A stretch of DNA of 64,000 bases. Source: an uncultured Enterobacteriaceae bacterium. Lineage in GTDB: Bacteria; Myxococcota_A; UBA9042. Both the position numbers and the translations under genes were made by a program. The notes under the pieces are model-generated. The model was given only the letters and a program-made list of their open reading frames with translations. It had not been told where the DNA came from and searched no databases. Below are positions 97 to 61,826 of the stretch, one piece after another. Each line of letters starts with the position of its first letter. The stretch's first letter is position 1. The stretch is from the NCBI GenBank assembly GCA_964356325.1, contig CAYHHL010000001.1, forward strand, positions 57,246-121,245, in the 5' to 3' direction.

Positions 97-1430
97 GGTC
101 GGCCTCCGGGGACGATCTGCTCGCCGTCGATGAAGACCCGCTCCGGTTCGACGCCCAGTTCCAACGGCGAGCGCGGCCACACCACGACGTCGGCGTCCTT
201 GCCCGCCTCGAGCGTGCCCAACCGGTCCGAGACGCCGATGAGCCTGGCAGGGTTGCGCGTCACGGCCTGGAGCGCTGCCTGCTCAGGAAGCCCGTAGTGG
301 TGCGCCTTTGCCGCCTCGAACATCAAGTAACGCGCGTCGATCACCGGGTGATCCGTCTTCAGTGCCAGCAGGACTCCAGCGTCGAACAGCAGTTTGGGCG
401 CGTGCACGCTGCCGTCGTACGCCTCCATCTTGAAGCCCCACAGGTCCGCGAAGGTCGCGACGCCGACGTGCTGGTCCACCAGCAACCGAGGGATCTTCCA
501 GGCTTCCAGCGCGTGATGGATCGCCGCGACGCGAAAGCCGAACTCGCCGGCGATGCGCAACAGCGTTTCGATGTCGTGGACTTCATAGCAATGCACTTGC
601 AGGTACACCTCCCCGCGCAACAGCGCTACGATCGGCTCCAGCTCAGGCTTGAACGGTTTGACGCCTGTATGCAGGGGGTTGCGTTCCCACGTATCCTGCT
701 GATCGCGCAGGTCGCGCGCCTCGAACAGCAGCTTGCGCAGGACCCAGCCGTGGCCCATGCGCGACATCGGCAATTGCGAGCGAGCCCCGTATACGCGCTT
801 GGGATTCTCGCCCATCGCCCACTTCATCGACCGCGGCGGCCTCGGCAAGGCCATCTCGGCGACGGTGTGGCCGCGCAGCTTGACGTAGAACGCCTGCCCG
901 CCGACCGCGTTGCCACTGCCCGGCAGGATGAGCGAGGTCGTGACGCCGCCCGCAACCGCTCGTGCAATCGCGGGATCTTCCGGATCGAAACCGTCCAGGG
1001 CGCGCACCGCGGGCGTAGTTGGCCCGGTCATCTCATTGCCGTCCGCGTGGGCCTTGGCGTTCGGCGCACCGTAGACGCCCAGGTGCGAATGCATGTCGAC
1101 CAGGCCCGGCGTCAAGATCCGGCCGCGCACGTCGATCTCCCGCGCTCCGTCCGGCAATGGAATGCCTTTCGCCACCGCGGTGATCTTGCCATTTTCCAAG
1201 AGGATATCGGTATCCGGCAGCACCGCGCCGGTCGCCGTCCACAGCGTGCCACCGCGCAACAACGTCGCCTGGGCGCGAACGGGCCGCGGCTTGGGGGCCG
1301 GCACCGGCGGCGGCAACTGGGCCAGCGCGGGCAGGGCGGCCAGCAAGGACAACGCCATGGCCATCAGGCAGCGGACAACGGCAAGACGCGTCTTGTGAAC
1401 GGGCCCATTCTGCAAGGGCGAACCGGACAT
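93..1430 (-). CDS. Amidohydrolase-family metal-dependent hydrolase, secreted.
   Basis: The motifs VDMHSHLGVYGAPN and HADGNE are typical of amidohydrolases. A signal peptide MAMALSLLAALPALAQ follows an internal ATG at 1430. Codon usage is GC3-rich in this frame. Confidence 0.75.
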   Translation of the reverse strand: MSGSPLQNGPVHKTRLAVVRCLMAMALSLLAALPALAQLPPPVPAPKPRPVRAQATLLRGGTLWTATGAVLPDTDILLENGKITAVAKGIPLPDGAREIDVRGRILTPGLVDMHSHLGVYGAPNAKAHADGNEMTGPTTPAVRALDGFDPEDPAIARAVAGGVTTSLILPGSGNAVGGQAFYVKLRGHTVAEMALPRPPRSMKWAMGENPKRVYGARSQLPMSRMGHGWVLRKLLFEARDLRDQQDTWERNPLHTGVKPFKPELEPIVALLRGEVYLQVHCYEVHDIETLLRIAGEFGFRVAAIHHALEAWKIPRLLVDQHVGVATFADLWGFKMEAYDGSVHAPKLLFDAGVLLALKTDHPVIDARYLMFEAAKAHHYGLPEQAALQAVTRNPARLIGVSDRLGTLEAGKDADVVVWPRSPLELGVEPERVFIDGEQIVPGGRP

Positions 1431-1608
1431 GTCGTGGGTGTTCCGAGGCCGGACTGACGGCGCGCGGCAGGGTAGAAGTCCCCCGGACAAACGGCAAGAG
1501 CGCGTCCGTTGGCGGCTACGGACCCGCGCTACGCCACCATGGACGAATGACCGCCACGCTTCTAGACTGCCCAGCCTAGCCATCGCCCTTCCCGGCTGCG
1601 CAGGTTCC

Positions 1609-4527
1609 ATGAGCCAACCCAAGACTTCTCGCTACCTAGGCCTCATCGGATTCCTCTGCCAGGGTCTCTGCCTCGCGGGGTGCGGCCTTGGCTCGGTCGG
1701 CGCGGATCTGGAAGCCTGGCGCGCCGCGAAGGACGCGTTCGGAGCCGATGCCACGGTCGCAGCCGATGCTGGCGCCGACGCCTCCACAGCCTGTTCACCC
1801 GCCAATTGTGACGATGACAACCCTTGCACGGCGGATACTTGCAAGGCAGGCGCCTGCCTGCACGCTACCCAGGACGGACCTTGCGACGACGGATCGGGCT
1901 GCACGGGTGCCGATACCTGCAAAGAAGGCAAATGCCAGGGAGCAGCGCGCACTTGGATGTTCGTCTCCGGCATCCCAGGTGCGTTCCAGACGGTCGCCGC
2001 TGTGCGCGAATTGCCAGACGGCGGGGTGTTGGCGGTCGGAGCCACGCAATTCGGCGACGGCGATGCAGTGCCGGCACGCGGGCATACCTTGCGCCTGGAT
2101 GCGGCTGGCAAATCCGTCGGCGAATGGCAAACCGATCCGGACACGCGCTGGACCGCCCTGGTGCCAGTGCCTGCCGCGACCCTTCTGCTCGGGTTTCGCC
2201 GTGACGGCGCGTCCGTAGCCCTGATTTCAGCACCTTTGCCACTCGACGCCGTGCAACCGCCGGCCTTGGTGACCCAGGATGCCTGGCCCGACCAACCCAT
2301 TGCCGCGGAGCCATCTGCAGACCAGACGGTGCTCGTGCTCGCCCAGTCCGGCACCGAGGCGAAGCGGCACGTCGTCCTCGATCGCCTCCATGCCGATGGT
2401 TCAGCGGTGGCGCGCACGCCTGTGCTAGGGACCGAAGGGCTGCAGGTCCAAGGTTGGACCCCGAACGCTGCGGGGCACCTGCTCGTCGGTTCGGCAAACG
2501 ACGGGCAATCCGCTTGGGCCGCCCAGGTTTCGCCCGCGGGAGTCCTGCAGGGCAAGCCGGCGATCTACACGTGTCCACAGGGTACGGACCATCACCTCGT
2601 GGGTGCCGTGCCCGCCGCGTTCGGTTTCGTGCTGGTGGGACACTGCCAGACGGCGGGAGCGGCCCACGTCTGGCTCGTCGGCGTCGATCGCAAGGCCAAG
2701 CCGCTGTGGACCAAGGTCTATCAGGATCAGGCGGATACCATCCTGGCCGTGCGTGCGCTCAGCGCGACGACGTGGCTGGCGGCGGGCTACACGCACGGCA
2801 ACGCCAATGCGCTGCTGCGACCGGCTTTGTGGCAATTCGACGTCACCGGCCAACAGTTGTGGAGTCGCACGATCGAAAAGGGCGCCCTGTTCGCGAGCCT
2901 GACCTTGGCCCAGGACGGCGGCATCTGGCTGGGCGGCGCGGCGACGCAAGGCATGACTTTGACGGCGGCCGATAGCTTCGTCGTGCGCGCCAACGCCTGG
3001 GGCCTGACGGACTGCAAGGGCGCCGGCAAGTGCGCGGGGCCCGGCAACAGCTGTGACGACGGCGACCCTTGCACTTCGGACGTCTGCGTCCTGGCCGGCG
3101 CATGCACGAACACGCAAAACACCTGGCCCTGCAACGACGGTGTCGCGTGCGCCATCGGCGAGACCTGCCAGGGCGGCGCATGCCAGGGCGGCAAGGCGGA
3201 CCTGTGCGACGACGAAAACGCCTGCACCACCGACTCGTGCTCGGACCCCGAGGGCTGCAAACACAAGCCGGCGAGCGGAAGTTGCAGCGACGGCAACGCT
3301 TGCACGACGGGCGACCTCTGTATCGACACGACTTGCACCCCGAACGGCGTGCTCGCGTGCGACGACGGCAACCCCTGCACGACCGACGTTTGCGATCCCG
3401 GCGTCGGCTGCAATGGCCTCAACGTGCCCGACGGCCTGCCCTGCGCCCAGGGCAAGGTGTGCGCCGCCGGCAAGTGTTCGATTCCTTGGGCCAGCGCCGT
3501 CGCTACGGGCGACGACTTCTCCTGCGCCATGCATGACGGCCACCTGCTGTGCTGGGGCGCCAACGATCGCGGCCAGTTGGGCAACGGTGTCGGTGCGGCG
3601 AGCGGCATCCCCGTCGACACTGGAGTCGTCCAGGCGGTGCAGGTAGGCGGCGGCGTCGGCTTCGCGTGCGCCCGCAAGGCCACCGGCAAGATCGCATGCT
3701 GGGGACGCAACGACGTCGGCCAGGCGGGCGTCGTCCCGGGCCCTGGCGCGGCGACTCCGACGGACGTGGCGTTGGCGGCCGTCGCGGTGGATCTCGCAGT
3801 CGGTGCGACCCATGCGTGCGCGAGAACCGTACAGCAGGACGTGTGGTGTTGGGGATCCAATATAGACAAGCAGTTGGACAAGGACGGTGCGGGAAGTTTC
3901 GCGCCCGTGCAGCCCGCGCACGTGACCAAGGCGACGCTGATCGCGGCGGGCGGCGCGCAGACCTGTGCCTTGAAGCCGAACGGTGAGACCGTGTGCTGGG
4001 GCCTGGCCAAACTCGGCGGCGCGTTGTTCGAGAAGACCACTTCGCAACCTCAACTCATCGACCTTCCTGCGTCTCCGGTCGCGCTGGCTGTGGGCGAGAC
4101 TTTCGCGTGCGCCCTCATGAACGACCACTCCGTTTGGTGCTGGGGCGAGAACAGCGTTGGCCAACTCGGCATGGGCAAAAGCGTTCCCGGGACATTCGCG
4201 CCGGTCGCCGTGCTGGGCCTCCAGGACGCCGAGAGCGTGACGGCGGGTTTCCAGCACGCCTGTGTCCTGCGCAAGGGCGGCGCGGTCTGGTGTTGGGGCG
4301 ATCACGTCTGGGGCGAACTCGGCGACAGCACCGCGCTCGCAGGCATCTCGGTGTTGGAGTCGCCGATCCTGGCCTCGATTCAGCCCATGACCCAGCTTGC
4401 CGCACGAAACACTCACACTTGCGGGTTGCTGCCCTCCGGCGCGGTGGCGTGCTGGGGCCACGGAGGCCTGCCGGGACTGGTGGGCCAAAGCAAGGCCTTG
4501 GTGTATCTTCAGGATTCGCTACCCTAG
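1609..4527 (+). CDS. Large lipoprotein combining Myxococcus-type cysteine-rich repeats (DDNPCTADTC, DGNPCTTDVCD) with C-terminal RCC1-like beta-propeller repeats (CWGANDRGQLGNG, five copies).
   Basis: The internal start MSQPK carries an L-A-G-C lipobox. The D-x-N-P-C-T-x-D-x-C motif repeats. There are five CWG-N-x-x-GQLG RCC1-like blades. Confidence 0.8.
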   Translation: MSQPKTSRYLGLIGFLCQGLCLAGCGLGSVGADLEAWRAAKDAFGADATVAADAGADASTACSPANCDDDNPCTADTCKAGACLHATQDGPCDDGSGCTGADTCKEGKCQGAARTWMFVSGIPGAFQTVAAVRELPDGGVLAVGATQFGDGDAVPARGHTLRLDAAGKSVGEWQTDPDTRWTALVPVPAATLLLGFRRDGASVALISAPLPLDAVQPPALVTQDAWPDQPIAAEPSADQTVLVLAQSGTEAKRHVVLDRLHADGSAVARTPVLGTEGLQVQGWTPNAAGHLLVGSANDGQSAWAAQVSPAGVLQGKPAIYTCPQGTDHHLVGAVPAAFGFVLVGHCQTAGAAHVWLVGVDRKAKPLWTKVYQDQADTILAVRALSATTWLAAGYTHGNANALLRPALWQFDVTGQQLWSRTIEKGALFASLTLAQDGGIWLGGAATQGMTLTAADSFVVRANAWGLTDCKGAGKCAGPGNSCDDGDPCTSDVCVLAGACTNTQNTWPCNDGVACAIGETCQGGACQGGKADLCDDENACTTDSCSDPEGCKHKPASGSCSDGNACTTGDLCIDTTCTPNGVLACDDGNPCTTDVCDPGVGCNGLNVPDGLPCAQGKVCAAGKCSIPWASAVATGDDFSCAMHDGHLLCWGANDRGQLGNGVGAASGIPVDTGVVQAVQVGGGVGFACARKATGKIACWGRNDVGQAGVVPGPGAATPTDVALAAVAVDLAVGATHACARTVQQDVWCWGSNIDKQLDKDGAGSFAPVQPAHVTKATLIAAGGAQTCALKPNGETVCWGLAKLGGALFEKTTSQPQLIDLPASPVALAVGETFACALMNDHSVWCWGENSVGQLGMGKSVPGTFAPVAVLGLQDAESVTAGFQHACVLRKGGAVWCWGDHVWGELGDSTALAGISVLESPILASIQPMTQLAARNTHTCGLLPSGAVACWGHGGLPGLVGQSKALVYLQDSLP

Positions 4528-4546: not shown

Positions 4547-5755
4547 ATGCGTTCGAGCTGTTCCCTGGCCTGGACCCTGCGCTCGTGCCTCGTCGCGGCG
4601 CTGGTCGGCTGTGGAACGCCCGCTGCGCCATCCGTGCCCGCGGGCGCCGACACCGTGACCTTCGCGGGCGGCCTGGACGCCGGCAAGACTGACGCCAGCA
4701 AGGACTCCTCCGCGGGCGATGCGACAGTTGCCGACCACGGAATCGCTTCCCACGACACGCTGAAGTCGGACGCCCCCGCCAGCCCCGCGGACACGGTCGC
4801 GCCCACCGACAGCGTGGAGCCTGCCGAAGATATCGTGTCTTCCCCGGATGTTCCAACTGGACCTGTCTGTGGCAACGGCCAATGCGAGTCGCCCGAGTCC
4901 GCCCAGTCGTGCCCCGCCGATTGTCCTGCCGGCCCGCCGGTGTGCGGCGACGCTTGGTGCCAGATCGAGAGCGAGTCTCCCAGCTTGTGCCCGATCGACT
5001 GCGATGCCGGCGCCGTGGCTGTCCTGACCTGCCTCAAGGCGCCGTGCGCGGCCGAACTCGGTGTTTGCCTGGGCAGCAAGGCGTGCATCCTGGCGCTTGG
5101 CGAGGCGATGTCGTGTCTGTCCTCGTGCGGGGGAGGCTCCAACTGCGACGTGTGCGGCAAGATCGCGTCGGCCAAGCCAGGCGGCGACGCCGTGGTCGCG
5201 TGCGGCTTTGCCCAGTGCGGCAGCGCCAGCCCCGACGGCTTCTGCGGCGACGATGAGTGTGGCTCCAAGGAATCCGCGGTGACGTGCCTCGCGGACTGCC
5301 AGGGCGGCGGAGGGCCCGTGTGCGGCGACGGCACCTGCACGCCGCCCGAAAACGCCAGCCAGTGCCCCGCTGACTGCAAGGCCGCCAACGCGTGCGGCGA
5401 CGGCAAGTGCCAGGCCGGCGAGAGCAACGCTTCCTGCCCAGCCGACTGCAAGGGCCCTGCGCCCATGTGCGGCGACGCGGTGTGCCAGGCCAACGAGACC
5501 GTCTCGGCCTGCCCGTTCGACTGCGACCCGGCGATCCAGCCTTCGACCGCGTGCGGCAAGCTGAAGTGCGGCAAGCAAAGCGACGCCTGCTTCACCGACC
5601 CCGAGTGCGCCAAGATCCTGTCCGAGGCGCTGGCCTGCCTGAAGAAGTGTGGTGGCACGCAGGCTTGCACGAACAGTTGCGCCGGACCGGTGCTCGGCAA
5701 CGACCTGGCGTTGGCTCTCGCGTCGTGCGGCCAGCAAGAATGCCCGCCGCCGTGA
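4547..5755 (+). CDS. Secreted modular cysteine-rich lipoprotein with six ~21-aa repeats C-G-[DN]-G-x-C-x3-E-x4-C-P-x-D-C and a ~65-aa Cys-rich spacer module.
   Basis: The signal peptide MRSSCSLAWTLRSCLVAALVGCG has a lipobox. The repeats CGNGQCESPESAQSCPADC, CGDGTCTPPENASQCPADC and others are visible. It is paralogous to the ORF at 61941..63635. Confidence 0.7.
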   Translation: MRSSCSLAWTLRSCLVAALVGCGTPAAPSVPAGADTVTFAGGLDAGKTDASKDSSAGDATVADHGIASHDTLKSDAPASPADTVAPTDSVEPAEDIVSSPDVPTGPVCGNGQCESPESAQSCPADCPAGPPVCGDAWCQIESESPSLCPIDCDAGAVAVLTCLKAPCAAELGVCLGSKACILALGEAMSCLSSCGGGSNCDVCGKIASAKPGGDAVVACGFAQCGSASPDGFCGDDECGSKESAVTCLADCQGGGGPVCGDGTCTPPENASQCPADCKAANACGDGKCQAGESNASCPADCKGPAPMCGDAVCQANETVSACPFDCDPAIQPSTACGKLKCGKQSDACFTDPECAKILSEALACLKKCGGTQACTNSCAGPVLGNDLALALASCGQQECPPP

Positions 5756-5858: not shown

Positions 5859-7018
5859 ATGACGGCCATCCTCGACTGCCCAGTGCTGCCCCTTCACCCT
5901 CTCCCGCGCGTCACCGGCGATCTGCCCGGTTGCGGCGGGCAGCTTCGCGTCCAGGTGGAAGACTTCGAAGTCGAGGAGTTGCCGCTGTACGAACCGTGCG
6001 GGCAGGGCGACCACCTCTACCTCTGGCTCGAGAAGATCGACGTGCCCGCGGAGACCTTGCGCCGTCACGTCGCGCGCAGCCTGGGTGTGCCGACGATGGA
6101 CGTGGGCATGGCCGGGCTCAAGGATCGCCGCGCCGTCACTCGCCAATGGGTCAGCGTGCCGCGTTCGGCCGAAGCGCGCGTGCCCCAGATCGACACCGAT
6201 CGCATCCACGTCCTGCGCGTCGTCGCCCACCGCAACAAGCTGCGCACCGCCCACCTGGCCGGCAACCGCTTCCGCATCCGCATCCGGGGCACGCAGCCCG
6301 AATCCGCCGAACTGGTCGCGCGCAAGTTGGAACGCTTGGCAGTGACCGGAGTTCCGGACTTCTTCGGCAGCCAGCGCATGGGCATCGGCGGGTCGACGTT
6401 CGCCGCCGGTTGGGCCTTGCTGCACGGCGCGGAACGCCTCACGCGGGTGCGCACGCCGGACGACACCGTGCACACGCTGCACCTCGAAGATCGACCGCTG
6501 CGTCGGCTGGCCGCTTCCGCGGTTCAGGCCGAGGTGTTCAACCGGACCGTCGCGTGTCGGCTGGAACGTGGCGTGTGGACACAGGTCTTGCCCGGCGACG
6601 TGTGCCGCAAGGTGCTGTCCGGCGGCACGTTCGTCACCGATGATCCAGAGCGCGAACAACTCCGGGCACTCGAAGGCGAACTGACCGTGACAGGACCGAT
6701 GTGGGGACCGAAGATGATCCGTGCCCAGGACCAAGCTGGTGAACTCGAACGGGAAGTCCTCGCTGGCATCGGCTTGACCGAGGCGCATTTCGCGACCTTG
6801 GGACACCTGGCCGAAGGGACGCGCCGGCCGGTGGTCGTGCGCCCGGGCGAATTGCAGGTCCAGGCCAACGACGATGGAGTGACGGTGGCTTTTACCCTGC
6901 CGGCGGGCGCATTTGCGACGGTGCTGCTGCATGAGCTGATGGGCCCGAACGAAGCGGAGGACTCGGCCGCGGCGCAAGAACTGGCCGGCGACGACGTGGT
7001 GAGCGAGGAGGGCCCGGC

Positions 7019-7028
<10 letters not shown>
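5859..7028 (+). CDS. truD: tRNA pseudouridine(13) synthase TruD.
   Basis: It carries the TruD signature GMAGLKDRRAVTRQW, and its length and N-terminus match TruD. The start was chosen at the internal ATG 5859. Confidence 0.8.
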
Positions 7029-17546: not shown

Positions 17547-18827
17547 ATGACGCAAACCTCGCCCGCCCCCAAGCCCTTGCCCGATCTCGGACCGTTGCCC
17601 GCGATGCTCGAAGCCCACGTGCGCGCGCGCTACACGCCCAACCGCATGACGCACAGCCGCGCGCCCCTGGCGGACATCCACCGGGAGGCGCTGCTCGAAC
17701 TCTCCGAGATGTTCACCAGTGATCGCGAGGCCTTGCCTGCAGGCTACCTGACCAAGCCGCGGTTCCGGGGCGCGTACCTGCTGTACTTCGTGCCGACGGG
17801 CGTGGCGACGACGCTTGCGGTGCTGCGATCCGCCCGCCTGCTCGATCGTCCGTTCGAACCGGGTTCGACGCTGCGTGTGCTCGACCTCGGCGCGGGGCCC
17901 CTGACCGCGAGTCTGGCCGTCGCCCTCGCACTGCCGCCGGACGTGCGCCTGGAAGTGGTCGCCATCGACGGTGCGTTGCCGATTCTCGAGGACGGCAGGG
18001 CGCTGATGCAGGCGGTGCGGCCGGGCACGACGGTGCGGCTCATCGACGGCAATCTTCGCGACGGCCGGACCTTGAACGCCGCGGGTGTCGGCTTCGATCT
18101 GATCCTGATGGCCAACATCCTGAACGAATGGGCGGTAGGCGGTCGCAAGCAGCAGTCACCGGGTGAATTCGCCGGCAAGGTCATAGCCGAACGGTTGGCG
18201 TCGGGCGGCGCGGCGGTGTTGATCGAGCCGGGTACCCGCAGCGGTTCGCACCATCTGATCGAAGTGCGTGAACAGATTCTGGAAGTGGGTCCCGAAGTGG
18301 CGATCCTGGCACCGTGCATGGGTCGCGCGCCGTGCCCGATGGCCGGCTCGATGCGCGATTGGTGTCACAGCGAGCAAGCCTGGACGCGGCCGACGTTGGT
18401 GACCGAACTGGACGAGGCGATCGGCCACCGGCGCAGCACGCTGAAGTTCAGCTACCTGGTGGTCGGCGACCGGCCACAGCCCAAGGTGAACCCCGCGAAA
18501 TTCCGCGTGATTGGTGGGCCGATGCGCGCCGACGGGCTGTTTCGCCGCTACCTGTGCGGGCCGAACGGCCGTCTGGTCGCGACATGGCCCGACAACCAAA
18601 CGCCGACGGCCCTTCGCGATGCGTGGCGCGGGGATACCGTGATCGTCGAGGGGCAGGTGCGCGACGAGGCGCGGGGCCGGCGGACCGAGCGGATGCTGGT
18701 CCCGTTGGGCGGACAGAAGCCACCGAGTCCACGCCAGAATCGTCCGCAGGGTGAACGACCGGAGCCGCGATCGCCCATGCCGCCTCCGCCCCGGGGCAAG
18801 CCTCGCCCGCCACGGCGAACTCCTTGA
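17547..18827 (+). CDS. SAM-dependent methyltransferase, Rsm22-like, with a Pro/Arg-rich C-terminal tail.
   Basis: Methyltransferase motif I reads VLDLGAGPLTASLA. A Cys cluster LAPCMGRAPCPMAGSMRDWCH sits downstream as in Rsm22-family proteins. Confidence 0.5.
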   Translation: MTQTSPAPKPLPDLGPLPAMLEAHVRARYTPNRMTHSRAPLADIHREALLELSEMFTSDREALPAGYLTKPRFRGAYLLYFVPTGVATTLAVLRSARLLDRPFEPGSTLRVLDLGAGPLTASLAVALALPPDVRLEVVAIDGALPILEDGRALMQAVRPGTTVRLIDGNLRDGRTLNAAGVGFDLILMANILNEWAVGGRKQQSPGEFAGKVIAERLASGGAAVLIEPGTRSGSHHLIEVREQILEVGPEVAILAPCMGRAPCPMAGSMRDWCHSEQAWTRPTLVTELDEAIGHRRSTLKFSYLVVGDRPQPKVNPAKFRVIGGPMRADGLFRRYLCGPNGRLVATWPDNQTPTALRDAWRGDTVIVEGQVRDEARGRRTERMLVPLGGQKPPSPRQNRPQGERPEPRSPMPPPPRGKPRPPRRTP

Positions 18828-18939
18828 CTCTGCGCGCGACCTGAGCGGGTTGGCATCCCGCGCCCGGCCAAGGTATCCTGCCGCCGGCGTTCGATCGGGC
18901 GCCACGCCTCCTTCCCTGGGAGCCACGTTCAGGAGTTCC

Positions 18940-21882
18940 ATGCGCCATCCAGTCGTGGTCTTCGCCGTTTCCTGCGTTTTTGCAGGCGCTTGCGGCACCG
19001 TCACCGTCACGCCCGAAGATGCGGCAGGCGATGCGCCCCAGGCCGATAGCGCCGACATCGCGGTCGTGTCGGACGTCGGATCGGATGCGACGCCCGGGCA
19101 GGACACTTCCGGTCTAGCCTGCCAGATCGACACCGACTGCCTCGCGATGAAGGGCAAGACGCCGTGCAACCTGCCGGTTTGCGAGGCCAAGGTCTGCAAG
19201 CTCTCGTTGCGCAAGGAAAAGGAGAAGTGCATCAATCCGCTGGATCCCGCGGGCGACTGCGAGGAAGCGACGTGCAGCGCGGACGGCAAGTGCAACAAGG
19301 CGCCGCTGAAGGACTTGAGCAAGTGCATCGGCTCCGTGGTCAACTGCGGCAAGCTGTGCAAGCAAGGCCAGTGCGTGGTTGCCACGACCGAGGACTACGA
19401 CGACAAGAACCCGTGCACCAACGACTTCTGCGATCAGGGCCAGGCCGTCCTGCACACGCCTATCACCGACTTGGGCAAGCTTTGCGACGACGGCGATTCC
19501 TGTACCACTGGCGACGCTTGCGTGACCGGCAAGTGCCAGGGCCAGGTGCAGTCCTGCGACGACAACATCCCGTGTACGACTGATACCTGTGACAAAGCAA
19601 AGGGTTGCGTGCACACCGGAGTCGCCGCCAAGTGCAACGACAGCAACGTTTGCACCAAGGACGCCTGCGATCTCGCGGTGGGCTGCACTGTGGCCGGCTT
19701 CGAACTCGCGAAAGCTTGCGACGATGGCAACTCCTGCACCAAGAATGACTTTTGTGCCGCGGGCGCGTGCGTCAGCAAGGAACTCACTTGCAACTGCAGC
19801 AACGACGCCGACTGCGTGCAGTTCAACCCGACTATCTCGGCCTGCCTGGGCAAGTTCAAGTGCACGATCGGCGACCCCAAGGTGCCCGGCAAGTGCACGC
19901 TGGACCCCGCGAGCGCCGTCAAGTGCGTCACGACCAGCGATACTGCTTGCGTAAAGAATACTTGCGATGCGACTTCGGGCCAATGCTCGCCCCAGCCGGT
20001 CAAGGATGGCCTGGAGTGCGACGACGACAACAAGTGCACCAGCAAGTCCACCTGTCAGAAAGGCGGCTGCGCGGGAACTCCGGACCAGGCTTGCGACGAC
20101 AAGAACCCTTGTACGACAGATGTTTGTGACGCAGAGATCGGCTGCACGTCCACTGCCAACGCCAGCCCGTGCAACGACGCGAACGCGTGCACCGAGAAGG
20201 ACACCTGCGGATCGGGCGTGTGCAGCGGCGTGGCCAAGCAACCGCCGTGCGCGGACGAAATCCCTTGCACCATCGACAAGTGCGACCCGGCCAGCGGCGA
20301 CTGCTCGCACAAGCTGGACAACACGGCATGCGATGACGGCAACCCCTGCACGCTGGACTCGTGCAAGCTGGGCAGCGGGTGCGCGCAGGCTGCCAACGAT
20401 ACGGGCGCTTGCACCGACGGCAACGAATGCACCAAGGACGCGTGCCTGGAAGGCAAGTGCGTCTCGACCGTGACCTGCAAGTGCCAGGGCGACCAGGAAT
20501 GCAACGACAACAACCCTTGCACCGCGGATACTTGCCAGAACGGCCAGTGCGTCGCCAAGGCCACGGACGGAGGGGCGTGCGACACCGGCGACAAGTGCAT
20601 CCAGGCCGGAACGAGCCTCTGCCAGGCCGGCACCTGCAAAGGCGGCACGTTCATCCAATGCAGCGGCACTGGCGACGCTTGCAATGCGGCCGCCTGCAAC
20701 TCCTTGAGTGGAAAGTGCGAAACCGTTTCGAAGGGCGATGGCACTGCCTGCGACGCGGACAACAGCGGCTGCACGACCTCGGATGCCTGCCAAGGCGGCA
20801 AGTGCGTGCCGGGGCCGAAGGTGACGTGCGCTACAGTGGATCCATGCATGATCTCCACGTGCAAGTCGACGGGCGGGAGCGAGCACACCTGCGTCACCGC
20901 GACCAAACCGGTCAACACGCCGTGCGAGGATGGCAAGGTCTGCAGCCAGAACGACTTCTGCGATTCCGCGGGCAAATGCCAACCGGGCGCACCGATGCCT
21001 TGCCCGGGCAGCACTTGCCTCACGGGCGCGTGCTCCGAAACGACCAAGGGCTGCACCATGCAAGCGAAACTGAACGGCACCAAGTGTGATGACGGCCTGT
21101 TCTGCACCACGCAGGATACCTGCGACGGCACGGGCAAGTGCCTGAGCGGCCTGAAGTTGAAGTGCGAGGGCGCGCCGCCTTGCGGTCAGGGCACGTGCGA
21201 CGAGGCGGTCGACCAGTGCGTCGTGGTCTACCCGCCGCAATGCTGTGTCACCACCAGCATCAATTGCGACGACGGCATCAGTTGCAGCAAGGACTACTGC
21301 TCGGCTTCGACGGCGGGCACCCCCGGCCAGTGCATGCACGACCTGCAGACTACGTGCTGCAACCCATTGGCGTACACGTCCGCGTTCGACAAGGGCCTGC
21401 TGAACGGCTTGGAGATCGTCAACTCGACGGGAAGTACGTTGTGGGGCTGGCAGTTGCGCAACCAGTCGCCCATCGCCAACACCCCGCCCGGAGCGCTGTA
21501 CTACGGCGACGCGAAGGCCAACAACTTCGCGTTCAGCGGCGTGGCCAGCAAGGGCACCGCGACGACGCCGCCGATGAACCTGCCGGCCGGGACCGTGGTC
21601 ACGTTCAGCGTGTTCTTCGATACTGAGGCGGGCAATGGCTACGACAAGTTCCAGGTCTCCGCGGTGACCCAGGAAGGCAAGAAGTACCTGATCTGGGAGA
21701 AGACCGGCGGCACCGATCAGCTCAACGTCTGGCTGAAGATCAAGGCGCCCATCGAGACCGTGGCCGGCACCTTGCGCATCGAGTTCCTGTTCGACACCAC
21801 CGACAACGTCAACAACGCCACCAAGGGCGTCTTCCTCGACGACATCACGGTCAACGTCAAATGCGGGCCACCTGCCGGATGA
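18940..21882 (+). CDS. Giant lipoprotein of 980 aa built from many Myxococcus-type cysteine-rich repeats, with a C-terminal ~230-aa non-Cys domain.
   Basis: The signal MRHPVVVFAVSCVFAGACG is preceded by CAGGAG. More than 20 repeats of D-x-N-[PS]-C-T-x-D-x-C-D...G-C are present. The tail LNGLEIVNSTGSTLWGWQL... is beta-rich. Confidence 0.8.
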   Translation: MRHPVVVFAVSCVFAGACGTVTVTPEDAAGDAPQADSADIAVVSDVGSDATPGQDTSGLACQIDTDCLAMKGKTPCNLPVCEAKVCKLSLRKEKEKCINPLDPAGDCEEATCSADGKCNKAPLKDLSKCIGSVVNCGKLCKQGQCVVATTEDYDDKNPCTNDFCDQGQAVLHTPITDLGKLCDDGDSCTTGDACVTGKCQGQVQSCDDNIPCTTDTCDKAKGCVHTGVAAKCNDSNVCTKDACDLAVGCTVAGFELAKACDDGNSCTKNDFCAAGACVSKELTCNCSNDADCVQFNPTISACLGKFKCTIGDPKVPGKCTLDPASAVKCVTTSDTACVKNTCDATSGQCSPQPVKDGLECDDDNKCTSKSTCQKGGCAGTPDQACDDKNPCTTDVCDAEIGCTSTANASPCNDANACTEKDTCGSGVCSGVAKQPPCADEIPCTIDKCDPASGDCSHKLDNTACDDGNPCTLDSCKLGSGCAQAANDTGACTDGNECTKDACLEGKCVSTVTCKCQGDQECNDNNPCTADTCQNGQCVAKATDGGACDTGDKCIQAGTSLCQAGTCKGGTFIQCSGTGDACNAAACNSLSGKCETVSKGDGTACDADNSGCTTSDACQGGKCVPGPKVTCATVDPCMISTCKSTGGSEHTCVTATKPVNTPCEDGKVCSQNDFCDSAGKCQPGAPMPCPGSTCLTGACSETTKGCTMQAKLNGTKCDDGLFCTTQDTCDGTGKCLSGLKLKCEGAPPCGQGTCDEAVDQCVVVYPPQCCVTTSINCDDGISCSKDYCSASTAGTPGQCMHDLQTTCCNPLAYTSAFDKGLLNGLEIVNSTGSTLWGWQLRNQSPIANTPPGALYYGDAKANNFAFSGVASKGTATTPPMNLPAGTVVTFSVFFDTEAGNGYDKFQVSAVTQEGKKYLIWEKTGGTDQLNVWLKIKAPIETVAGTLRIEFLFDTTDNVNNATKGVFLDDITVNVKCGPPAG

Positions 21883-37601: not shown

Positions 37602-38714
37602 TCAGCGCGAGGACTCGCGTCCCAACACCGCTTGGCCTATCGGGTCCAGCGCGCGTTCGAGCACCACGGTCCGCGTCGGAAAGGCCATCGCTAGCCCCGC
37701 CGCCTGGAATCCAGCGTGGATCGCCAGGTTCACCGCGTGGTGCACTTCGCCGGCCAGATTGGCGTCCGGCACCTTGTAGAGCACGCGTACGCCCAACGCC
37801 GAATCGCCGAAGTTCACGAACATCACGGAGAATTCAGGGTGGATACCCGGTTGCGCCGCCAACACCGCCCGCACCAGATCCACTGCCTGCAGCACCTGCG
37901 CCGGTGTCGAACCATAGGTCAGCGATAGCAGGAAGTCGCGCACCAAGCCATCAGGATGACTGTGGTTTTCAATAGTCGCCTCGGCCAGCTTCTTGTTCGG
38001 GATGACGGTGCAGATGCCGTTGCCCTGCAGCAGCCGGGTCGAACGCAGGCCAATCGCCGTCACCTTACCGAAGTGGCCATCCACCTTGATCCAGTCGCCG
38101 ATGCTGAACGGCCGATCCGTCATGATCTGCAGGCTGCCCAACAGGTTGCCGAGCGTCTCCTGCGCCGCCAGCGCCACTGCCAGACCGCCGATGCCCAGAC
38201 CCGTGACCACCGAGATCACATCGAAACCCGCGCGTTGCAGCACGGTGACCGCAAGCAGCAGGGCGAACACGATCTTGGCGGTGACCCGGGCGAAATTCAG
38301 CACCGCGACGCTGACCGGCGGGGCCTGACGCGCCGCCCAGGGCACCATCAGTTCCTCGTACACCACGTCGACCGCGCGCAGGAGCATGGCGCCGATCGTC
38401 ACCGCCACAGCGATGGCCAGGGCATCGACGCCAAACCGGTGCGTGCTTTCCGGCATCGTCAGGATTTGCAGGGAGATGTGAACCGAGCCGAAGAACACCA
38501 GCACGGCGGTGGGCCGGGCCAGGCGTTGCACCAGGCGGTCGTCCAACGTCGTGGCGGTACGCGCCGTCAGCTTGGTCACGAAGCGCGTCATCAGGAACGC
38601 GCCCAACCGGCCGAGCAGCCAACCCAGCATCAGCACCAGCGCGACGACAAGCCAAGTCCGCGCCGGATTGCCTGCGAATTCACGGGCGAACCATTGATTC
38701 ATCGGCATCGTCAT
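37602..38714 (-). CDS. MscS-family mechanosensitive channel.
   Basis: There are TM helices and the MscS beta-domain motif DGHFGKVTAIGLRSTRLLQGNGICTVIPNKKLAEATIEN. The ATG overlaps the stop of the radical-SAM gene in an ATGA arrangement. Confidence 0.85.
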   Translation of the reverse strand: MTMPMNQWFAREFAGNPARTWLVVALVLMLGWLLGRLGAFLMTRFVTKLTARTATTLDDRLVQRLARPTAVLVFFGSVHISLQILTMPESTHRFGVDALAIAVAVTIGAMLLRAVDVVYEELMVPWAARQAPPVSVAVLNFARVTAKIVFALLLAVTVLQRAGFDVISVVTGLGIGGLAVALAAQETLGNLLGSLQIMTDRPFSIGDWIKVDGHFGKVTAIGLRSTRLLQGNGICTVIPNKKLAEATIENHSHPDGLVRDFLLSLTYGSTPAQVLQAVDLVRAVLAAQPGIHPEFSVMFVNFGDSALGVRVLYKVPDANLAGEVHHAVNLAIHAGFQAAGLAMAFPTRTVVLERALDPIGQAVLGRESSR

Positions 38715-40210
38715 GCGGCACGCTCGCGGGTGGGAGCGAGATCTTGGCGCACGGCGAGCTCGAGGGCGGCGATGCGCAGGATCCGGGGTAGAACCGCTCG
38801 GAATACTTCACAGTACGGCGAGCGACCGTCGACGTGGCCTTCGCGGCGGTACAGCAGCAGGGGACAACCGCCCGCGCAACTCGGCTTCCAGCGGCAGGCG
38901 TTGCAGGTAGAGTTGCCGGATTCGCGGCGAAACTGCGTGAATTGGCTCTGGGATCGCGCCATCGTCAGCAGGCTTTCCGGTCGGATCGGCTGCGTGCCGG
39001 GGTGATGCAAGGCAGCTTGGCAAGGGCTGATTTCGCCCGATTCAGCGATCGCGACGTACGAGTCGCCCGCGCCACAGGCCTTGGCGATCGGGCGCCACGG
39101 CTCCAGGTCGCAGAACTTGTGGCTGGCGCGAAAACCGCTGACTTCACCGCGACCTACCGCCTGTTCAATCAGATCGTAGCAAAGGCCGAACACCCGCTGC
39201 ACGCGCTGCAAGGCTTCACCCGACAGGATACCATTGGAATCGTTCGTTTGGATCTCTGCCAGTTGCGCGCCGTGGCGATCGTCCAGCACGCCCTGACCCC
39301 ACTCGAGGTCGCGCACTAGGCTGTAGCGAAACCACAACTTGCGTTCGAGCAGCCAGGCCGTCAGCGCGGGCAGACCGTCGAGGTTGCTGTCGCCCACCGT
39401 GATGAGGATGTACGGCCGGATGCCCGCGTCGAGATAGGTCTGCAAGCCCGCCTGAAGTCTGGCGAAAGACGATCCACCTCCCTTGACCGGGCGCATCACG
39501 TCCTGCACGCCGTCCAGCCCGTCGATCGAGACCGAGACGTGCACGCCGTGCGCCAGGATCCACTCGGTTGCCCCCGGGGGCACCACCGTGCCGTTGGTCA
39601 GGATCGCCGCCGAGAATTTCACCCCGTGACTTTGGCAACTTGCGGTCGCATCGGTGAAGAACTGCTGGATGTTGGCAAAGCGCAGCATCGGCTCGCCGCC
39701 TGCGAAACGGACGTTGATGCGATCCACTGCCCCTGAAGCCGCGGTCGCCTCGATCGATTGCAGCACCCGGGCCGCGACGTTGACGTCCATGTGCGTGGCA
39801 GACTTGTGGATATAGCAGTACGGACAAGCGAGGTTGCAGGCGTTGGTCACATGCAGCCAGGCGTTGAACACCCGCTCCTGCTTGCCGTCCGGCCGCCACG
39901 GCCGCACGCCCGGCGACAGCACGAAGCCGTTGCGCCAGAGCAGAGGCAGTTCAGCCAGCAATCGTATGATTTCTTGGGGATCGTCGCTCGCCAGTTCGGC
40001 TGCGATGTCGGCGGCTGAGCGTCCGTCCGCCGCGTGCAACAGCCGCAACGCGCGCGGCGTGAGCAAGGCCAAGGCGTCGTGACCGTTGGGATTATGCGCG
40101 AACGATCGACCGCGCGCGACGCCTTGGTACAAGCCCGGCGCCCGCTGGATCGGCAGATCCGCCCACGTGTCTTGCGCGGGCGCCTGCCACGGCCGCTTCA
40201 CCGTCGCCAC
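38711..40210 (-). CDS. Radical SAM/SPASM-domain enzyme with an N-terminal PqqD-like RiPP recognition element.
   Basis: The CxxxCxxC motif reads HVTNACNLACPYCY. The C-terminal SPASM cysteines are CDLEPW...CGAGD...PCQ...CNACRWKPSCAGGCP...YCEVF. The N-terminal ~90 aa (SFAHNPNGHDALALLTPRALRLLHAADGRSAADIAAELASDDPQEIIRLLAELPLLWRNGFV) have a PqqD/RRE-like pattern. The start is a GTG at 40210 or 40201, or an ATG at 40264. Confidence 0.8.
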   Translation of the reverse strand: MATVKRPWQAPAQDTWADLPIQRAPGLYQGVARGRSFAHNPNGHDALALLTPRALRLLHAADGRSAADIAAELASDDPQEIIRLLAELPLLWRNGFVLSPGVRPWRPDGKQERVFNAWLHVTNACNLACPYCYIHKSATHMDVNVAARVLQSIEATAASGAVDRINVRFAGGEPMLRFANIQQFFTDATASCQSHGVKFSAAILTNGTVVPPGATEWILAHGVHVSVSIDGLDGVQDVMRPVKGGGSSFARLQAGLQTYLDAGIRPYILITVGDSNLDGLPALTAWLLERKLWFRYSLVRDLEWGQGVLDDRHGAQLAEIQTNDSNGILSGEALQRVQRVFGLCYDLIEQAVGRGEVSGFRASHKFCDLEPWRPIAKACGAGDSYVAIAESGEISPCQAALHHPGTQPIRPESLLTMARSQSQFTQFRRESGNSTCNACRWKPSCAGGCPLLLYRREGHVDGRSPYCEVFRAVLPRILRIAALELAVRQDLAPTRERAA

Positions 40211-41478
40211 TAGTTGTTGCAGTCCCAGGAACAGTCGCTGCTGCAATCGCTCGAGCAGTCCCATGAGCAGTCGCTGCTGCAGTCGGCGGAACAGTCGCTG
40301 CTGGCGCAATCTGTTGCCGCAGCGCAGTCCCAACCACTCGAATCACCAGAACTTTCACCGGACGAACTGTCGCCGGCCGCGCAGTCGAAGTTGCCAGCGG
40401 CCGTGCTGCCGCCCGTGTCGTACTGGTCCCAACTGCTGTTGCCCGCGTCGTAACCAGCCATCGCGTTGTCGTCCCAGCTCGCGGTCGAGAAGTCGCGGTC
40501 CATCACATCGCTGACGCCGCCCAACTGGTGTGAATAGCTGCCGATGTCGTCCGCGTTGCCGATGGGCGCGCCGTTGTAGTTGATGACCGTGACCGGGGCG
40601 CCGTAGCTGGACCAATGGCTGCCCAGGTAGCCAGCGCCGTATCCCCAGTGATGTCGCGGGCTGATGAGCGCATCCAGCACCATCAAGTTCACGAACGTGT
40701 CCATAGGATCCCGATAATACACGCTCCAAGGGTCGTAGTAGGGACTCGCCCAGCCACTGCGGGCGTAGACCGGGGCATTGCGCAGGTGGGCGTCGCGGTC
40801 GCACTGGCTCTGGCCCAGGTCGCGCACGTCCTCGCCGCTCGGGCGCACCACCTGCACGTCGGCGGGGTCGGACTCCAGGAGCGCGGTCGGAAACGCCCTC
40901 TGCAGGCCGCCTTGCACCTTGGCCGCCACCTCGCTCAGCACGTTGCGGTACATCGGCACGAGTTGCGCGTCAGCCAGGGCCTTGCCGATGCGATCCTTGG
41001 CTTTTTCGATGTCCTCGCCCTCGCGCGGTCGCAACTCGTCGATGCGCGCGCCGAACGACACCACCGCGTGCGGCTCGGTCTTCTTGGCCTTGGCACGCAC
41101 GGTCACTTCCAGCAGGCTGTGCAGGCCTTGGCCCTGGTACTCGAACACCGCGCGCAACATCTTGAATCCACCGGTGAACCGGGATGCGGATCGACGCATG
41201 GCCGCCACCAGCAGGTCGGCGTCGTGGTCGCGATCCTCGAGATCCTGGAAGACCACCTCGTCGTCGACCACGAGCGTCACGGCGTTGGTGATCCCGGCGA
41301 TCTGCAAGGCTTTCTGCACCTGTTCGGTCAGCGCTAGCACGTTCTGGGTAATCAGCAATTCACCCGTGCGCAAGTCGACGTCCGAGCCGAACGCGGTCTT
41401 GACCTTGTCCCAGAAGCTCGGCTGGCGAAACACTTCCTCGCCTTGGATGTAGAGACGGACCTGTGCTGTGAGGCGCAT
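40210..41478 (-). CDS. Protein of 422 aa with an unknown N-terminal domain, a Tyr/Trp/Gly-rich middle region and a C-terminal (D-C-S-x)n / W-D-C repeat tail. Candidate substrate of the adjacent radical SAM enzyme.
   Basis: AAGGAG lies 8 nt upstream of the ATG at 41478. The tail reads ...NFDCAAGDSSSGESSGDSSGWDCAAATDCASSDCSADCSSDCSWDCSSDCSSDCSWDCNN*. The stop TAG overlaps the GTG of the rSAM gene by 1 nt. Confidence 0.65.
   Translation of the reverse strand: MRLTAQVRLYIQGEEVFRQPSFWDKVKTAFGSDVDLRTGELLITQNVLALTEQVQKALQIAGITNAVTLVVDDEVVFQDLEDRDHDADLLVAAMRRSASRFTGGFKMLRAVFEYQGQGLHSLLEVTVRAKAKKTEPHAVVSFGARIDELRPREGEDIEKAKDRIGKALADAQLVPMYRNVLSEVAAKVQGGLQRAFPTALLESDPADVQVVRPSGEDVRDLGQSQCDRDAHLRNAPVYARSGWASPYYDPWSVYYRDPMDTFVNLMVLDALISPRHHWGYGAGYLGSHWSSYGAPVTVINYNGAPIGNADDIGSYSHQLGGVSDVMDRDFSTASWDDNAMAGYDAGNSSWDQYDTGGSTAAGNFDCAAGDSSSGESSGDSSGWDCAAATDCASSDCSADCSSDCSWDCSSDCSSDCSWDCNN
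40213..40400. repeat. 12-nt periodic tandem DNA repeats encoding the DCSx tail. The plus-strand unit is approximately GCAGTCGCTGCT.
   Basis: The units are read directly, for example gcagtcgctgctgcaatcgct / gcagtcgctgctgcagtcggc / gaacagtcgctgctg. Confidence 0.7.
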
Positions 41479-59623: not shown

Positions 59624-60682
59624 TTAGGCTGACGCGGGAACTTGCTGCGTAACACAATGGATATTTCCGTACTGAGTCACCAGGGCACGGCCATCGATGC
59701 CGATGACCTGCCGATCCGGCATCAGGTCGCGCAGGATCGCCAGCGCCTCGGCGTCGGTCGGTTGCTCGAACACCGGCACCAGCACCTTGCCATTCGCGAT
59801 GTAGAAGTTCGCATAGCTCGCCGGAAGATGCTCCCCGGCAAAGGAAATCGGCTCAGGCACCGGCAACGTCTCGATCCGGAAGGGCTGCCCAGCGACGCCG
59901 CGCATCGCCTGCAGTCGCGCCAGGTTGTCCGCCATCGCCGCGCAGTCCGGATGCCCTGGCACCGGCCGCACCGCCACGATGGTATCCGCCGTCACGAACC
60001 GCGCGATGTCGTCGATGTGCCCGTCGGTGTCGTCGCCTTCCAACCCCGCGCCCAGCCAATGCAATCGCTCCACGCCCAGGTGCAGACGCAGGCTCGCTTC
60101 GACCTCTTGCCGGGTCAGGTGCGGATTGCGGTTGGTATGGAGCAGGACGGCCTCGGTCGTCAGCAAGTCCCCGCAACCGTTCACTTCCAGCGATCCGCCT
60201 TCCATCACCAGGCCCGGTTGCACGCGCGGCAGGCCGAAGGACTCGTTCATCTGCCGCGGAATCAGGTTGTCCAGCCCCGAGGCGAACTTGCCGCCCCAGG
60301 CGTTGAACTCCCAGTCCAGCATCGCGACCGGCGGCGTCCCCGCGGGCGCATCCGGGCGCGCGGTCACGAAGATCGGCCCATGGTCGCGGGCCCAGACATC
60401 GTCGCTGTCGATCGCATGCCAAACGATCTGGCGCAGATCGCCACCTGCCGCGCGGATCGACGCCTCGGCGCGGTGCCGCCACTCCAGATCGGGCACGTTG
60501 ACGTGGACTTGTTCGACTTCGCTCAGTTCTGCGGCGAGCCGGGCAAAGGTGTCCTCGACGGCGCCGTGGACGCCCCGCCAGATTTCGGGCCGACGTGGCC
60601 AGGTGAGAATCGTACCTGAATGCGCAAACCACTCGGCAGGCATACGGAAGTGGCGAATGTCGAGAACGGCGTGCTGGACCAT
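59624..60682 (-). CDS. aguA: Agmatine deiminase.
   Basis: FRMPAEWFAHSGTILTWP matches the agmatine deiminase N-terminus. The C-terminal catalytic Cys lies in GNIHCVTQQ. Confidence 0.8.
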   Translation of the reverse strand: MVQHAVLDIRHFRMPAEWFAHSGTILTWPRRPEIWRGVHGAVEDTFARLAAELSEVEQVHVNVPDLEWRHRAEASIRAAGGDLRQIVWHAIDSDDVWARDHGPIFVTARPDAPAGTPPVAMLDWEFNAWGGKFASGLDNLIPRQMNESFGLPRVQPGLVMEGGSLEVNGCGDLLTTEAVLLHTNRNPHLTRQEVEASLRLHLGVERLHWLGAGLEGDDTDGHIDDIARFVTADTIVAVRPVPGHPDCAAMADNLARLQAMRGVAGQPFRIETLPVPEPISFAGEHLPASYANFYIANGKVLVPVFEQPTDAEALAILRDLMPDRQVIGIDGRALVTQYGNIHCVTQQVPASA

Positions 60683-60764
60683 GGGCGGATCCGGAAGCGT
60701 GCGCGTCGGATGTCGACGGCGAGCGTGATGGGGTAGCGGCGCGGCATGGCATCGTGCAAACGCT

Positions 60765-61721: not shown

Positions 61722-61826
61722 CGCGTCTCCGGTCTGACGGTGGACCGCCAAGGTAGCGATTCCCGGCCAAGCGACATAGCCGCTCGCCGGGCCTGGGTCA
61801 AATACAGAGGAACCGGGAACAGAAAT

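Follow-up and report, generated by a model that had tools for sequence, protein, structure and literature searches.

The N-terminal Cys-rich domain of violaxanthin de-epoxidase (VDE), a plant photoprotection enzyme of the thylakoid lumen, is needed for the xanthophyll cycle and is without a solved structure, since the lipocalin part of the enzyme is the only one solved. Its disulfides have been mapped to C9-C27, C14-C21, C33-C50, C37-C46, and C65-C72, or 1-4, 2-3, 5-8, 6-7, and 9-10 when the ten Cys are numbered in order (Hallin 2015, PMC4412432). All ten of these Cys are disulfide bonded and bind no metal (less than 1 mol%), and the activity of the enzyme drops by more than 99.9% upon mutation of any of 12 of the 13 Cys (PMC4412432). 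A BLAST survey in 2008 that looked for the VDE Cys-rich domain in 915 microbial genomes returned nothing, and homologues were found in protists only (Coesel et al. 2008, PMC2483416). A protozoan-host origin was proposed because microbial homologues had not been found (PMC2483416), and in the literature searched this is the only hypothesis on the origin of the domain. Here, we describe two genes in a 64,000-nucleotide stretch of contig CAYHHL010000001.1 (the window; 66% GC), namely, gene A (4547..5755, + strand, 402 amino acids [aa], 47 Cys) and gene B (61941..63635, + strand, 564 aa, 71 Cys), whose products are modular Cys-rich lipoproteins carrying a short four-Cys unit and a larger ten-Cys module. 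Sequence comparison indicates that the ten-Cys module is homologous to the VDE N-terminal Cys-rich domain, of which it is a bacterial, tandem, and lipocalin-free version.

The larger module spans ~70 residues and shows ten conserved Cys columns in an alignment of 61 bacterial sequences (alignment A1), with the framework C-x4-C-x6-C-x5-C-x5-C-x3-C-xn-C-x3-C-xn-C-x5/6-C. The first-pass annotation of the window had described it as a module of ~65 aa with eight Cys, a description that this alignment replaces. Two copies are present in A and three in B, the third of B being reduced to eight Cys. The only Pfam family touching the module is PF07137 (VDE lipocalin domain), which does so at positions 2 to ~60-70 of 242, and positions 2 to ~70 of this model correspond to the VDE N-terminal Cys-rich domain. 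Module 1 of B matched positions 2-58 with an E value of 3e-4 and 20.8 bits (cutoff, 25.7), followed by module 2 of B (E = 0.037), module 2 of A (positions 4-47, E = 0.11), and module 3 of B (E = 1), while module 1 of A gave no match. The relatives P0027 (30.1 bits), P0156 (32.7 bits), and P0173 (43 bits) pass the cutoff. With hhalign, the 61-sequence bacterial alignment matched genuine plant VDE N termini (fragments from pea and from potato, the latter named "Violaxanthin de-epoxidase") over 67 columns at a probability of 93.2% and an E value of 2.9e-7, and all ten Cys were aligned. A hidden Markov model (HMM) built from the bacterial modules only scored the plant VDE N termini at 29-34 bits end to end (pea VDE, 30.8), slightly above the 21-27 bits given by an HMM of the eukaryote-like relatives described below.

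The spacing of the first six Cys (x4, x6, x5, x5, x3) is identical between module 1 of B and VDE (spinach numbering C9..C72), and a [DN]-[PA]-x-C stretch after Cys3 is shared by VDE and the bacterial modules along with the ten-Cys framework. All ten Cys are retained in 553 of 596 unique family modules. The commonest variant (23 of the 596) is without Cys6 and Cys7 together, a joint loss that is expected if a bond of the C37-C46 type links the two, and the sequence of module 3 of B is best read as this reduced type. The ten-Cys module probably shares the whole VDE disulfide map (1-4, 2-3, 5-8, 6-7, 9-10), of which pair 6-7 alone is supported here, by co-loss. AlphaFold2 predicts a compact five-helix bundle for module 1 of B (predicted local distance difference test [pLDDT], 90.4; predicted template modeling score, 0.73), and module 2 of A is also helical in its model (block pLDDT, 86-95). 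When both AlphaFold2 models were compared with the PDB by Foldseek, and the module with BFVD as well, no relative was returned at E<0.4; the VDE domain and the bacterial module are alike in that neither structure is solved. A likeness of the module to LDLR class A repeats in a PDB sequence search (E = 0.09-0.5, 24 columns) follows the Cys pattern alone and was put down to chance. The ten-Cys helical GDNF/GAS1 family was also rejected, having one weak match (E = 0.0064) in one relative and no support from Foldseek.

Several features set the bacterial modules apart from VDE. No lipocalin domain comes after them, A and B contain two and three of them (relatives have as many as 12), and their Cys6-Cys7 and Cys8-Cys9 loops have other lengths. 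They are also interspersed with the short unit in lipoproteins and not placed in a thylakoid-lumen enzyme. Pfam found no lipocalin in A or B, so that the combination of a Cys-rich domain, a VDE lipocalin, and a Glu-rich tail is absent from both. Since the Pfam matches end at ~60-70 of 242 and no lipocalin is present, A and B are not de-epoxidases, and Pfam and NCBIfam scans found no catalytic domain in either.

An exhaustive search with HMMER, run with the module profile over 1.84 billion representatives, recovered 2,098 proteins at E≤1e-3, of which 383 reached E≤1e-10; as many as 12 VDE-type modules occur in one protein. A word-indexed homologue search with the module alignment gave no match. 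Among the matches listed, most start with a lipoprotein signal and many are without the short unit. The VDE-type domain appears to be an abundant family that resides mostly in bacterial lipoproteins. Within the 47 loci fetched, which all come from metagenome-assembled genomes (MAGs), it was found in those of Myxococcota type only (GC, 55-72%) and in none from Patescibacteria or DPANN archaea. The closest relatives of A come from uncultured Myxococcales, Myxococcota, and Polyangia MAGs, many of them from freshwater, and the window itself is probably part of a myxobacterial genome.

A minority of the relatives are eukaryote-like, having no lipobox and consisting of tandem modules only. Ten of them (P0156, P0173, P0201, P0243, P0255, P0219, P0147, P0164, P0174, and P0175) are small proteins made of 2-4 tandem VDE-type modules with non-lipoprotein signal peptides, and this group holds the strongest N-terminal PF07137 matches, up to 43 bits. 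Two of the ten, P0174 and P0175, are entries of a marine eukaryote transcript catalogue, and these tandem-module proteins are probably eukaryotic; they differ from A and B in being without the short unit. The VDE-like proteins reported from Acanthamoeba, Phytophthora, Entamoeba, and other protists (PMC2483416) resemble A and B in that the domain stands outside VDE and without a lipocalin, and they share a multidomain or tandem arrangement with the bacterial relatives. The difference is that the domain described here is part of a bacterial lipoprotein and occurs abundantly among Myxococcota MAGs. The size of the family (2,098 representative clusters), together with the fact that the loci with taxonomy belong to Myxococcota-type MAGs, reopens the question of where the domain originated. 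A literature search on VDE or Somatomedin-B (SMB) together with myxobacteria found no relevant paper. The family offers many small stand-alone VDE-type modules for structural and binding studies, and, if a bacterial origin is true, they would give practical access to how the VDE N-terminal domain is built and how it works.

Both open reading frames (ORFs) exist as first annotated, and the translations agree with modular Cys-rich lipoproteins. The lipoboxes L-V-G-C22 (A) and V-S-G-C23 (B), read from the translations, conform to the pattern [LVI][ASTVI][GAS]C, and each is preceded by an Arg-containing n-region and a hydrophobic h-region. A Shine-Dalgarno sequence (GGAGG) lies 6 nucleotides (nt) 5' of the ATG of gene A (4547), and GGAG lies at a suitable distance 5' of the ATG of gene B (61941). 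In both proteins, the signal peptide is followed by an acidic, Cys-free, low-complexity tether of ~85 residues. Cys makes up ~12% of residues and is fully accounted for by the modules, mature A having 44 Cys (6x4 + 2x10) and mature B 70 (2x8 + 5x4 + 10 + 10 + 8 + 6) with no remainder. Every module of A and B holds an even number of Cys, as expected of independently folding, internally disulfide-bonded modules. The features of the two genes, with independent E values (i-E) where an HMM was used, are as follows.

4547..4612, + strand: A, lipoprotein signal peptide, aa 1-22, lipobox LVGC (sequence; GGAGG; start of P0001)
4613..4861, + strand: A, tether, acidic, Ala/Ser/Thr/Pro/Asp-rich, low complexity, aa 23-105, no Cys (translation)
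4868..4924, + strand: A, short unit 1, CGNGQCESPESAQSCPADC, aa 108-126 (HMM i-E 1.3e-12)
4943..5002, + strand: A, short unit 2, CGDAWCQIESESPSLCPIDC, aa 133-152, one extra residue (HMM i-E 1e-3, regex)
5018..5233, + strand: A, VDE-type ten-Cys module 1, predicted helical, Cys at aa 162-224, most diverged copy (module HMM i-E 7e-8)
5243..5299, + strand: A, short unit 3, CGDDECGSKESAVTCLADC, aa 233-251 (HMM i-E 2e-3, regex)
5321..5377, + strand: A, short unit 4, CGDGTCTPPENASQCPADC, aa 259-277 (HMM i-E 7e-11)
5393..5449, + strand: A, short unit 5, CGDGKCQAGESNASCPADC, aa 283-301 (HMM i-E 8e-11)
5468..5524, + strand: A, short unit 6, CGDAVCQANETVSACPFDC, aa 308-326 (HMM i-E 4e-6)
5540..5752, + strand: A, VDE-type ten-Cys module 2, predicted helical, Cys at aa 336-399 (module HMM i-E 1.3e-14)
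61941..62009, + strand: B, lipoprotein signal peptide, aa 1-23, lipobox VSGC (sequence; GGAG 5' of the ATG)
62010..62255, + strand: B, tether, Gly/Asp-rich, low complexity, aa 24-105 (translation)
62256..62363, + strand: B, SMB domain 1, aa 106-141, 8 Cys (PF01033; SMB domains of autotaxin in the PDB)
62382..62438, + strand: B, short unit 1, CGNGQCDPGETSANCAQDC, aa 148-166 (HMM i-E 4e-11)
62454..62666, + strand: B, VDE-type ten-Cys module 1, Cys at aa 176-238 (module HMM i-E 2e-16)
62679..62735, + strand: B, short unit 2, CGDGQCEPPETDNSCPQDC, aa 247-265 (HMM i-E 1e-10)
62760..62816, + strand: B, short unit 3, CGDGLCNGGETSATCAKDC, aa 274-292 (HMM i-E 2.6e-10)
62844..63056, + strand: B, VDE-type ten-Cys module 2, Cys at aa 305-367 (module HMM i-E 1.7e-16)
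63066..63122, + strand: B, short unit 4, CGNGLCESGETGASCPQDC, aa 376-394 (HMM i-E 4e-11)
63138..63332, + strand: B, VDE-type module 3, reduced to 8 Cys, without the Cys6/Cys7 pair (module HMM i-E 1e-10)
63345..63446, + strand: B, SMB domain 2, aa 469-502, 8 Cys (second stretch of PF01033)
63465..63524, + strand: B, short unit 5, diverged, CGDGKCDVAAGEPKTCPTDC, aa 509-528 (HMM i-E 8e-3, regex)
63546..63629, + strand: B, C-terminal six-Cys domain, CATKSDCAADEVCCAKPDGQLCVKLGQC, C-x5-C-x5-CC-x7-C-x5-C (read from the sequence)

The two unit types that had been recognized at first are joined in B by modules that had been overlooked, namely, two SMB domains and the C-terminal six-Cys domain. PF01033 scored 57.5 bits for the whole protein over two stretches (cutoff, 23.1; E = 1.7e-15), with eight Cys each in aa 107-140 and aa 469-502, and the second domain also matched the SMB domains of EndoU (E = 4.9e-9) and vitronectin in the PDB. 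B holds two bona fide copies of this domain, known from vitronectin, ENPP/autotaxin, and EndoU. SMB serves as an accessory module in B alone, unrelated to the short unit and to the ten-Cys module, and it recurs in many homologues. The six-Cys domain has a knottin-like spacing and is conserved at the C terminus of P0003, the nearest relative of B; it had no match in Pfam or the PDB. Imperfect DNA repeats of 9/18 nt lie at 62050..62123, inside the tether of gene B.

Pairwise alignment of A and B confirmed their relatedness (28% identity, E = 4e-19). They had been called paralogous, which holds in a broad sense only, since A is nearer to P0002 from another sample (48% identity) and B is nearer to P0003 (33% identity, with the C-terminal architecture in common) than they are to each other. 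The sequences indicate two old subfamilies with modules in common.

The short unit was first annotated as ~21 aa long and is confirmed in six copies in A and five in B (four canonical and one diverged, by HMM and regular expression), although its Cys-to-Cys core measures 19 aa and tandem copies recur every 24-25 aa. Single units in A and B reached i-E values from 1e-12 to 8e-3, and a six-frame HMM scan of the whole 64-kb window found none outside the two genes. The motif did not occur in 100 simulated windows (dinucleotide Markov) or in 1,000 residue shuffles of each protein. Gathering instances by the bare framework C-x4-C-x8-C-x3-C only, we obtained 1,074 unique units with the consensus C-G(97%)-[ND](98%)-G(77%)-x-C-[ED]-x-G(63%)-E(99%)-[TSN]-x-x-[SNT](92%)-C-P(68%)-x-D(98%)-C, in which N/D3 (98%), E10 (99%), and D18 (98%) are near-invariant. 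All four Cys are present in 1,738 of 1,744 units detected by HMM, and co-loss analysis is uninformative here because the Cys are practically invariant. Tandem Repeats Finder detected no DNA-level repeat at the period of the unit, so the repetition is ancient at the level of protein and did not come from recent DNA duplication. In the AlphaFold2 model of three short units and a module of A (overall pLDDT, 87.5), in which the module is again helical, the short units have no regular secondary structure (block pLDDT, 74-89).

The unit had been proposed as unnamed, and the searches bear this out. No Pfam-A or NCBIfam model, TIGR02232 included, matched the short unit of A or B at E≤10, and SMB was the only family that these scans of A and B matched. 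No chain among the PDB sequences contains it, and the literal motif (CGDGxC and similar) appeared in no paper in the literature searched. The unit is present in all 120 homologues listed, 69 of which are without the ten-Cys module; their precomputed Pfam annotation shows no common family, and most have none even with up to 13 units. Among these homologues, the unit is fused to trypsin-like proteases, DUF11/DUF7507, SMB, TSP3_bac, and DUF6209. PF26780 is annotated in P0087 and P0102, where it probably covers a C-terminal domain (CDHDVC...CC...WD..C) and not the short unit, as other proteins rich in short units are without it. A match of the short-unit profile to Evasin-1 (E = 0.11) was rejected.

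The same consensus was found in contigs of low-GC Dojkabacteria and other Patescibacteria and of Woesearchaeota, Micrarchaeota, and Nanoarchaeota, these Patescibacteria and DPANN loci being low in GC. It is also present in many Myxococcota MAGs, and loci of uncultured Myxococcota carry up to 34 copies in 10 kb. The short unit is an independent and genuine module that is un-catalogued in the libraries searched, very common, and not specific to one genome. Giant arrays of 25-34 units in ~10 kb were seen in loci L014, L019, L020, L018, and L028, on MAG contigs of Myxococcota and "Pseudomonadota"; some of these units are an extra-Cys variant (e.g., CGDGTCKANESCESCPADC), and none of the five loci has a VDE-type module. 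EGF, LDLR-A, TSP repeats, and Dicty_CTDC likewise form tandem, disulfide-locked units of 20-40 aa in extracellular stalks, with frequent conserved acidic residues, but the short unit is shorter than these and matches none of them in sequence or fold. The 19-residue unit is a candidate for a new domain-family entry, and a named family would annotate many hypothetical secreted proteins of Myxococcota, candidate phyla radiation bacteria, and DPANN archaea.

Taken together, these distributions allow a broader reading, which we put forward tentatively and regard as doubtful. In it, the short unit would be an undescribed and very widespread prokaryotic extracellular mini-domain, a Ca2+-stabilized two-disulfide knot common to Myxococcota, Patescibacteria, and DPANN archaea, and the VDE Cys-rich domain would belong to a bacterial surface-module family. 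The VDE domain would then not be of protist-host origin; it would be one member of a large family of Myxococcota modules acquired by, or exchanged with, early eukaryotes. The ten-Cys module is not new in kind, and its link to VDE is a more interesting result than the short unit.

For the proteins themselves, we consider it rather probable that A and B are lipid-anchored, fully disulfide-bonded binding proteins of the envelope or surface with modules arranged like beads on a string. They would be exported by the Sec pathway and then lipidated at Cys22 (A) or Cys23 (B); the residues at position +2, Gly in A and Ser in B, are not retention residues, which makes sorting to the outer membrane or cell surface probable. 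From the acidic Cys-free tether of ~85 residues would extend a series of small modules that fold independently and are each locked by internal disulfides. The short unit may serve as a rigid spacer, possibly stabilized by Ca2+ through N/D3, E10, and D18, while the VDE-type helical bundle, and in B the SMB domains too, would be ligand- or partner-binding elements. On this model, A and B would serve a Myxococcota-like bacterium as structural or binding parts of its envelope or extracellular matrix, and their modules would belong to a kit that related organisms also attach to secreted proteases and other surface proteins. As genes, they are ordinary, two further modular surface or envelope lipoproteins with a presumed ligand-binding role. 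Some points weigh against this picture. The modules of the window itself remain below the curated PF07137 cutoff (best, 20.8 against 25.7 bits), module 1 of A has no direct Pfam match, gene neighborhoods are not conserved among relatives, and Ca2+ binding by the short unit is only conjectured from its conserved acidic positions.

Other explanations of the repeats and of the two proteins were weighed against these data. The short unit might be a diverged Myxococcus cysteine-rich repeat (TIGR02232/DUF4215) and nothing unnamed, as both are four-Cys repeats of secreted Myxococcota proteins, and the opening of the TIGR02232/DUF4215 repeat, CGNGxxExGE, resembles the short-unit start CGNGxCExGE. We consider this quite unlikely, given that TIGR02232 and DUF4215 were both missing when A and B were scanned against NCBIfam and Pfam at E≤10; a TIGR02232 match had been set beforehand as the finding that would speak against a new unit. 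PF13948, the accession of DUF4215, is likewise absent from the precomputed Pfam annotation of the 120 homologues listed, even from those with 10-13 units. The Cys framework and the length also differ, the short unit having C-x4-C-x8-C-x3-C over 19 aa and the TIGR02232/DUF4215 repeat another framework of ~27-38 aa. That the repeats are a compositional or ORF-calling artifact of a 66% GC genome, where high-GC DNA produces many long spurious ORFs in all frames of this region, is next to impossible. Protein A occurs identically in NCBI and ENA data, with the start of the database protein P0001 identical to that of gene A and an independent ENA contig showing the same neighbors, and it has hundreds of homologues. 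The short unit is also found in genomes of 36-43% GC and never in simulated sequence, and the AlphaFold2 models are confident.

Among functional alternatives, A and B could be metallothionein-like metal-binding or redox-buffering proteins of the periplasm or extracellular space whose Cys act as free thiols or thiolate ligands, a view encouraged by a Cys content of 12% and by conserved acidic residues beside Cys in every short unit. It is very unlikely in light of the homologous VDE domain, which has less than 1 mol% metal and its ten Cys in disulfides (PMC4412432). The Cys count is even in every module, export would place the Cys in an oxidizing compartment, the SMB domains on the same chain of B are classical disulfide knots, and Cys6 and Cys7 are lost as a pair, as disulfides predict. 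Small disulfide-rich domains are often inhibitors, and A and B might instead be secreted inhibitors or toxins (protease inhibitors or anti-prey effectors) with the modules as warheads, in an organism apparently of a predatory phylum and with relatives in which the short unit is often fused to trypsin-like proteases. This, too, is unlikely, as no inhibitor family matched in Pfam or, by sequence or fold, in the PDB. The lipid anchor and long tether favor a cell-attached over a diffusible protein, and varied architectures with up to 34 units per locus fit a spacer better than a warhead. The reading of A and B as anchored, disulfide-bonded binding proteins is the one that we prefer.

The gene context of A is compatible with a surface role yet not informative. 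Gene A starts 20 nt after the gene of a 1,032-aa RCC1/Dicty_CTDC protein on the same strand, and in another sample an A-like gene ends a same-strand row of genes for large SMB, Dicty_CTDC, and P_proprotein secreted Cys-rich proteins; a third relative of A has unrelated neighbors. The adjacent genes were correctly noted at first as housekeeping, with truD (5859..7028) downstream of A and a NadA-like fragment (63638..64000, + strand) after B; truD, aguB/aguA, and nadA are unrelated housekeeping genes. The repeats that the first-pass annotation had assigned to Myxococcus cysteine-rich repeats in the genes called 1609 and 18940 turned out to be Dicty_CTDC (PF00526), with E values of 7e-9 in 1429..4527 (+ strand) and 3e-18 in 18751..21882 (+ strand), and neither gene had an NCBIfam/TIGR02232 match. 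An RCC1 beta-propeller is a further part of the 1429..4527 protein. With Dicty_CTDC, SMB, and the VDE-type domain, the window combines several modules that are known chiefly from eukaryotes.

Elsewhere in the window, 59624..61751 (- strand), divergent from B, holds two adjoining genes, one for an agmatine deiminase (PAD_porph, E = 1e-109) and one for an N-carbamoylputrescine amidase-like CN-hydrolase (TIGR03381; 316 bits, below the cutoff of 410), and the two form a putrescine-from-agmatine pair. The 422-aa product of 40210..41478 (- strand) ends in a tail with Cys at every fourth position (...DCASSDCSADCSSDCSWDCSSDCSSDCSWDCNN). Its gene is immediately followed by that of a radical SAM/SPASM peptide maturase (38711..40333, - strand), whose annotated start it overlaps; the best NCBIfam models for the maturase are PapB, DynA, and the CefB type with Cys at every fifth position, all below their cutoffs. 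The region 38711..41478 looks like a precursor-maturase pair of the type that makes ribosomally synthesized and posttranslationally modified peptides, with an unusually long precursor.

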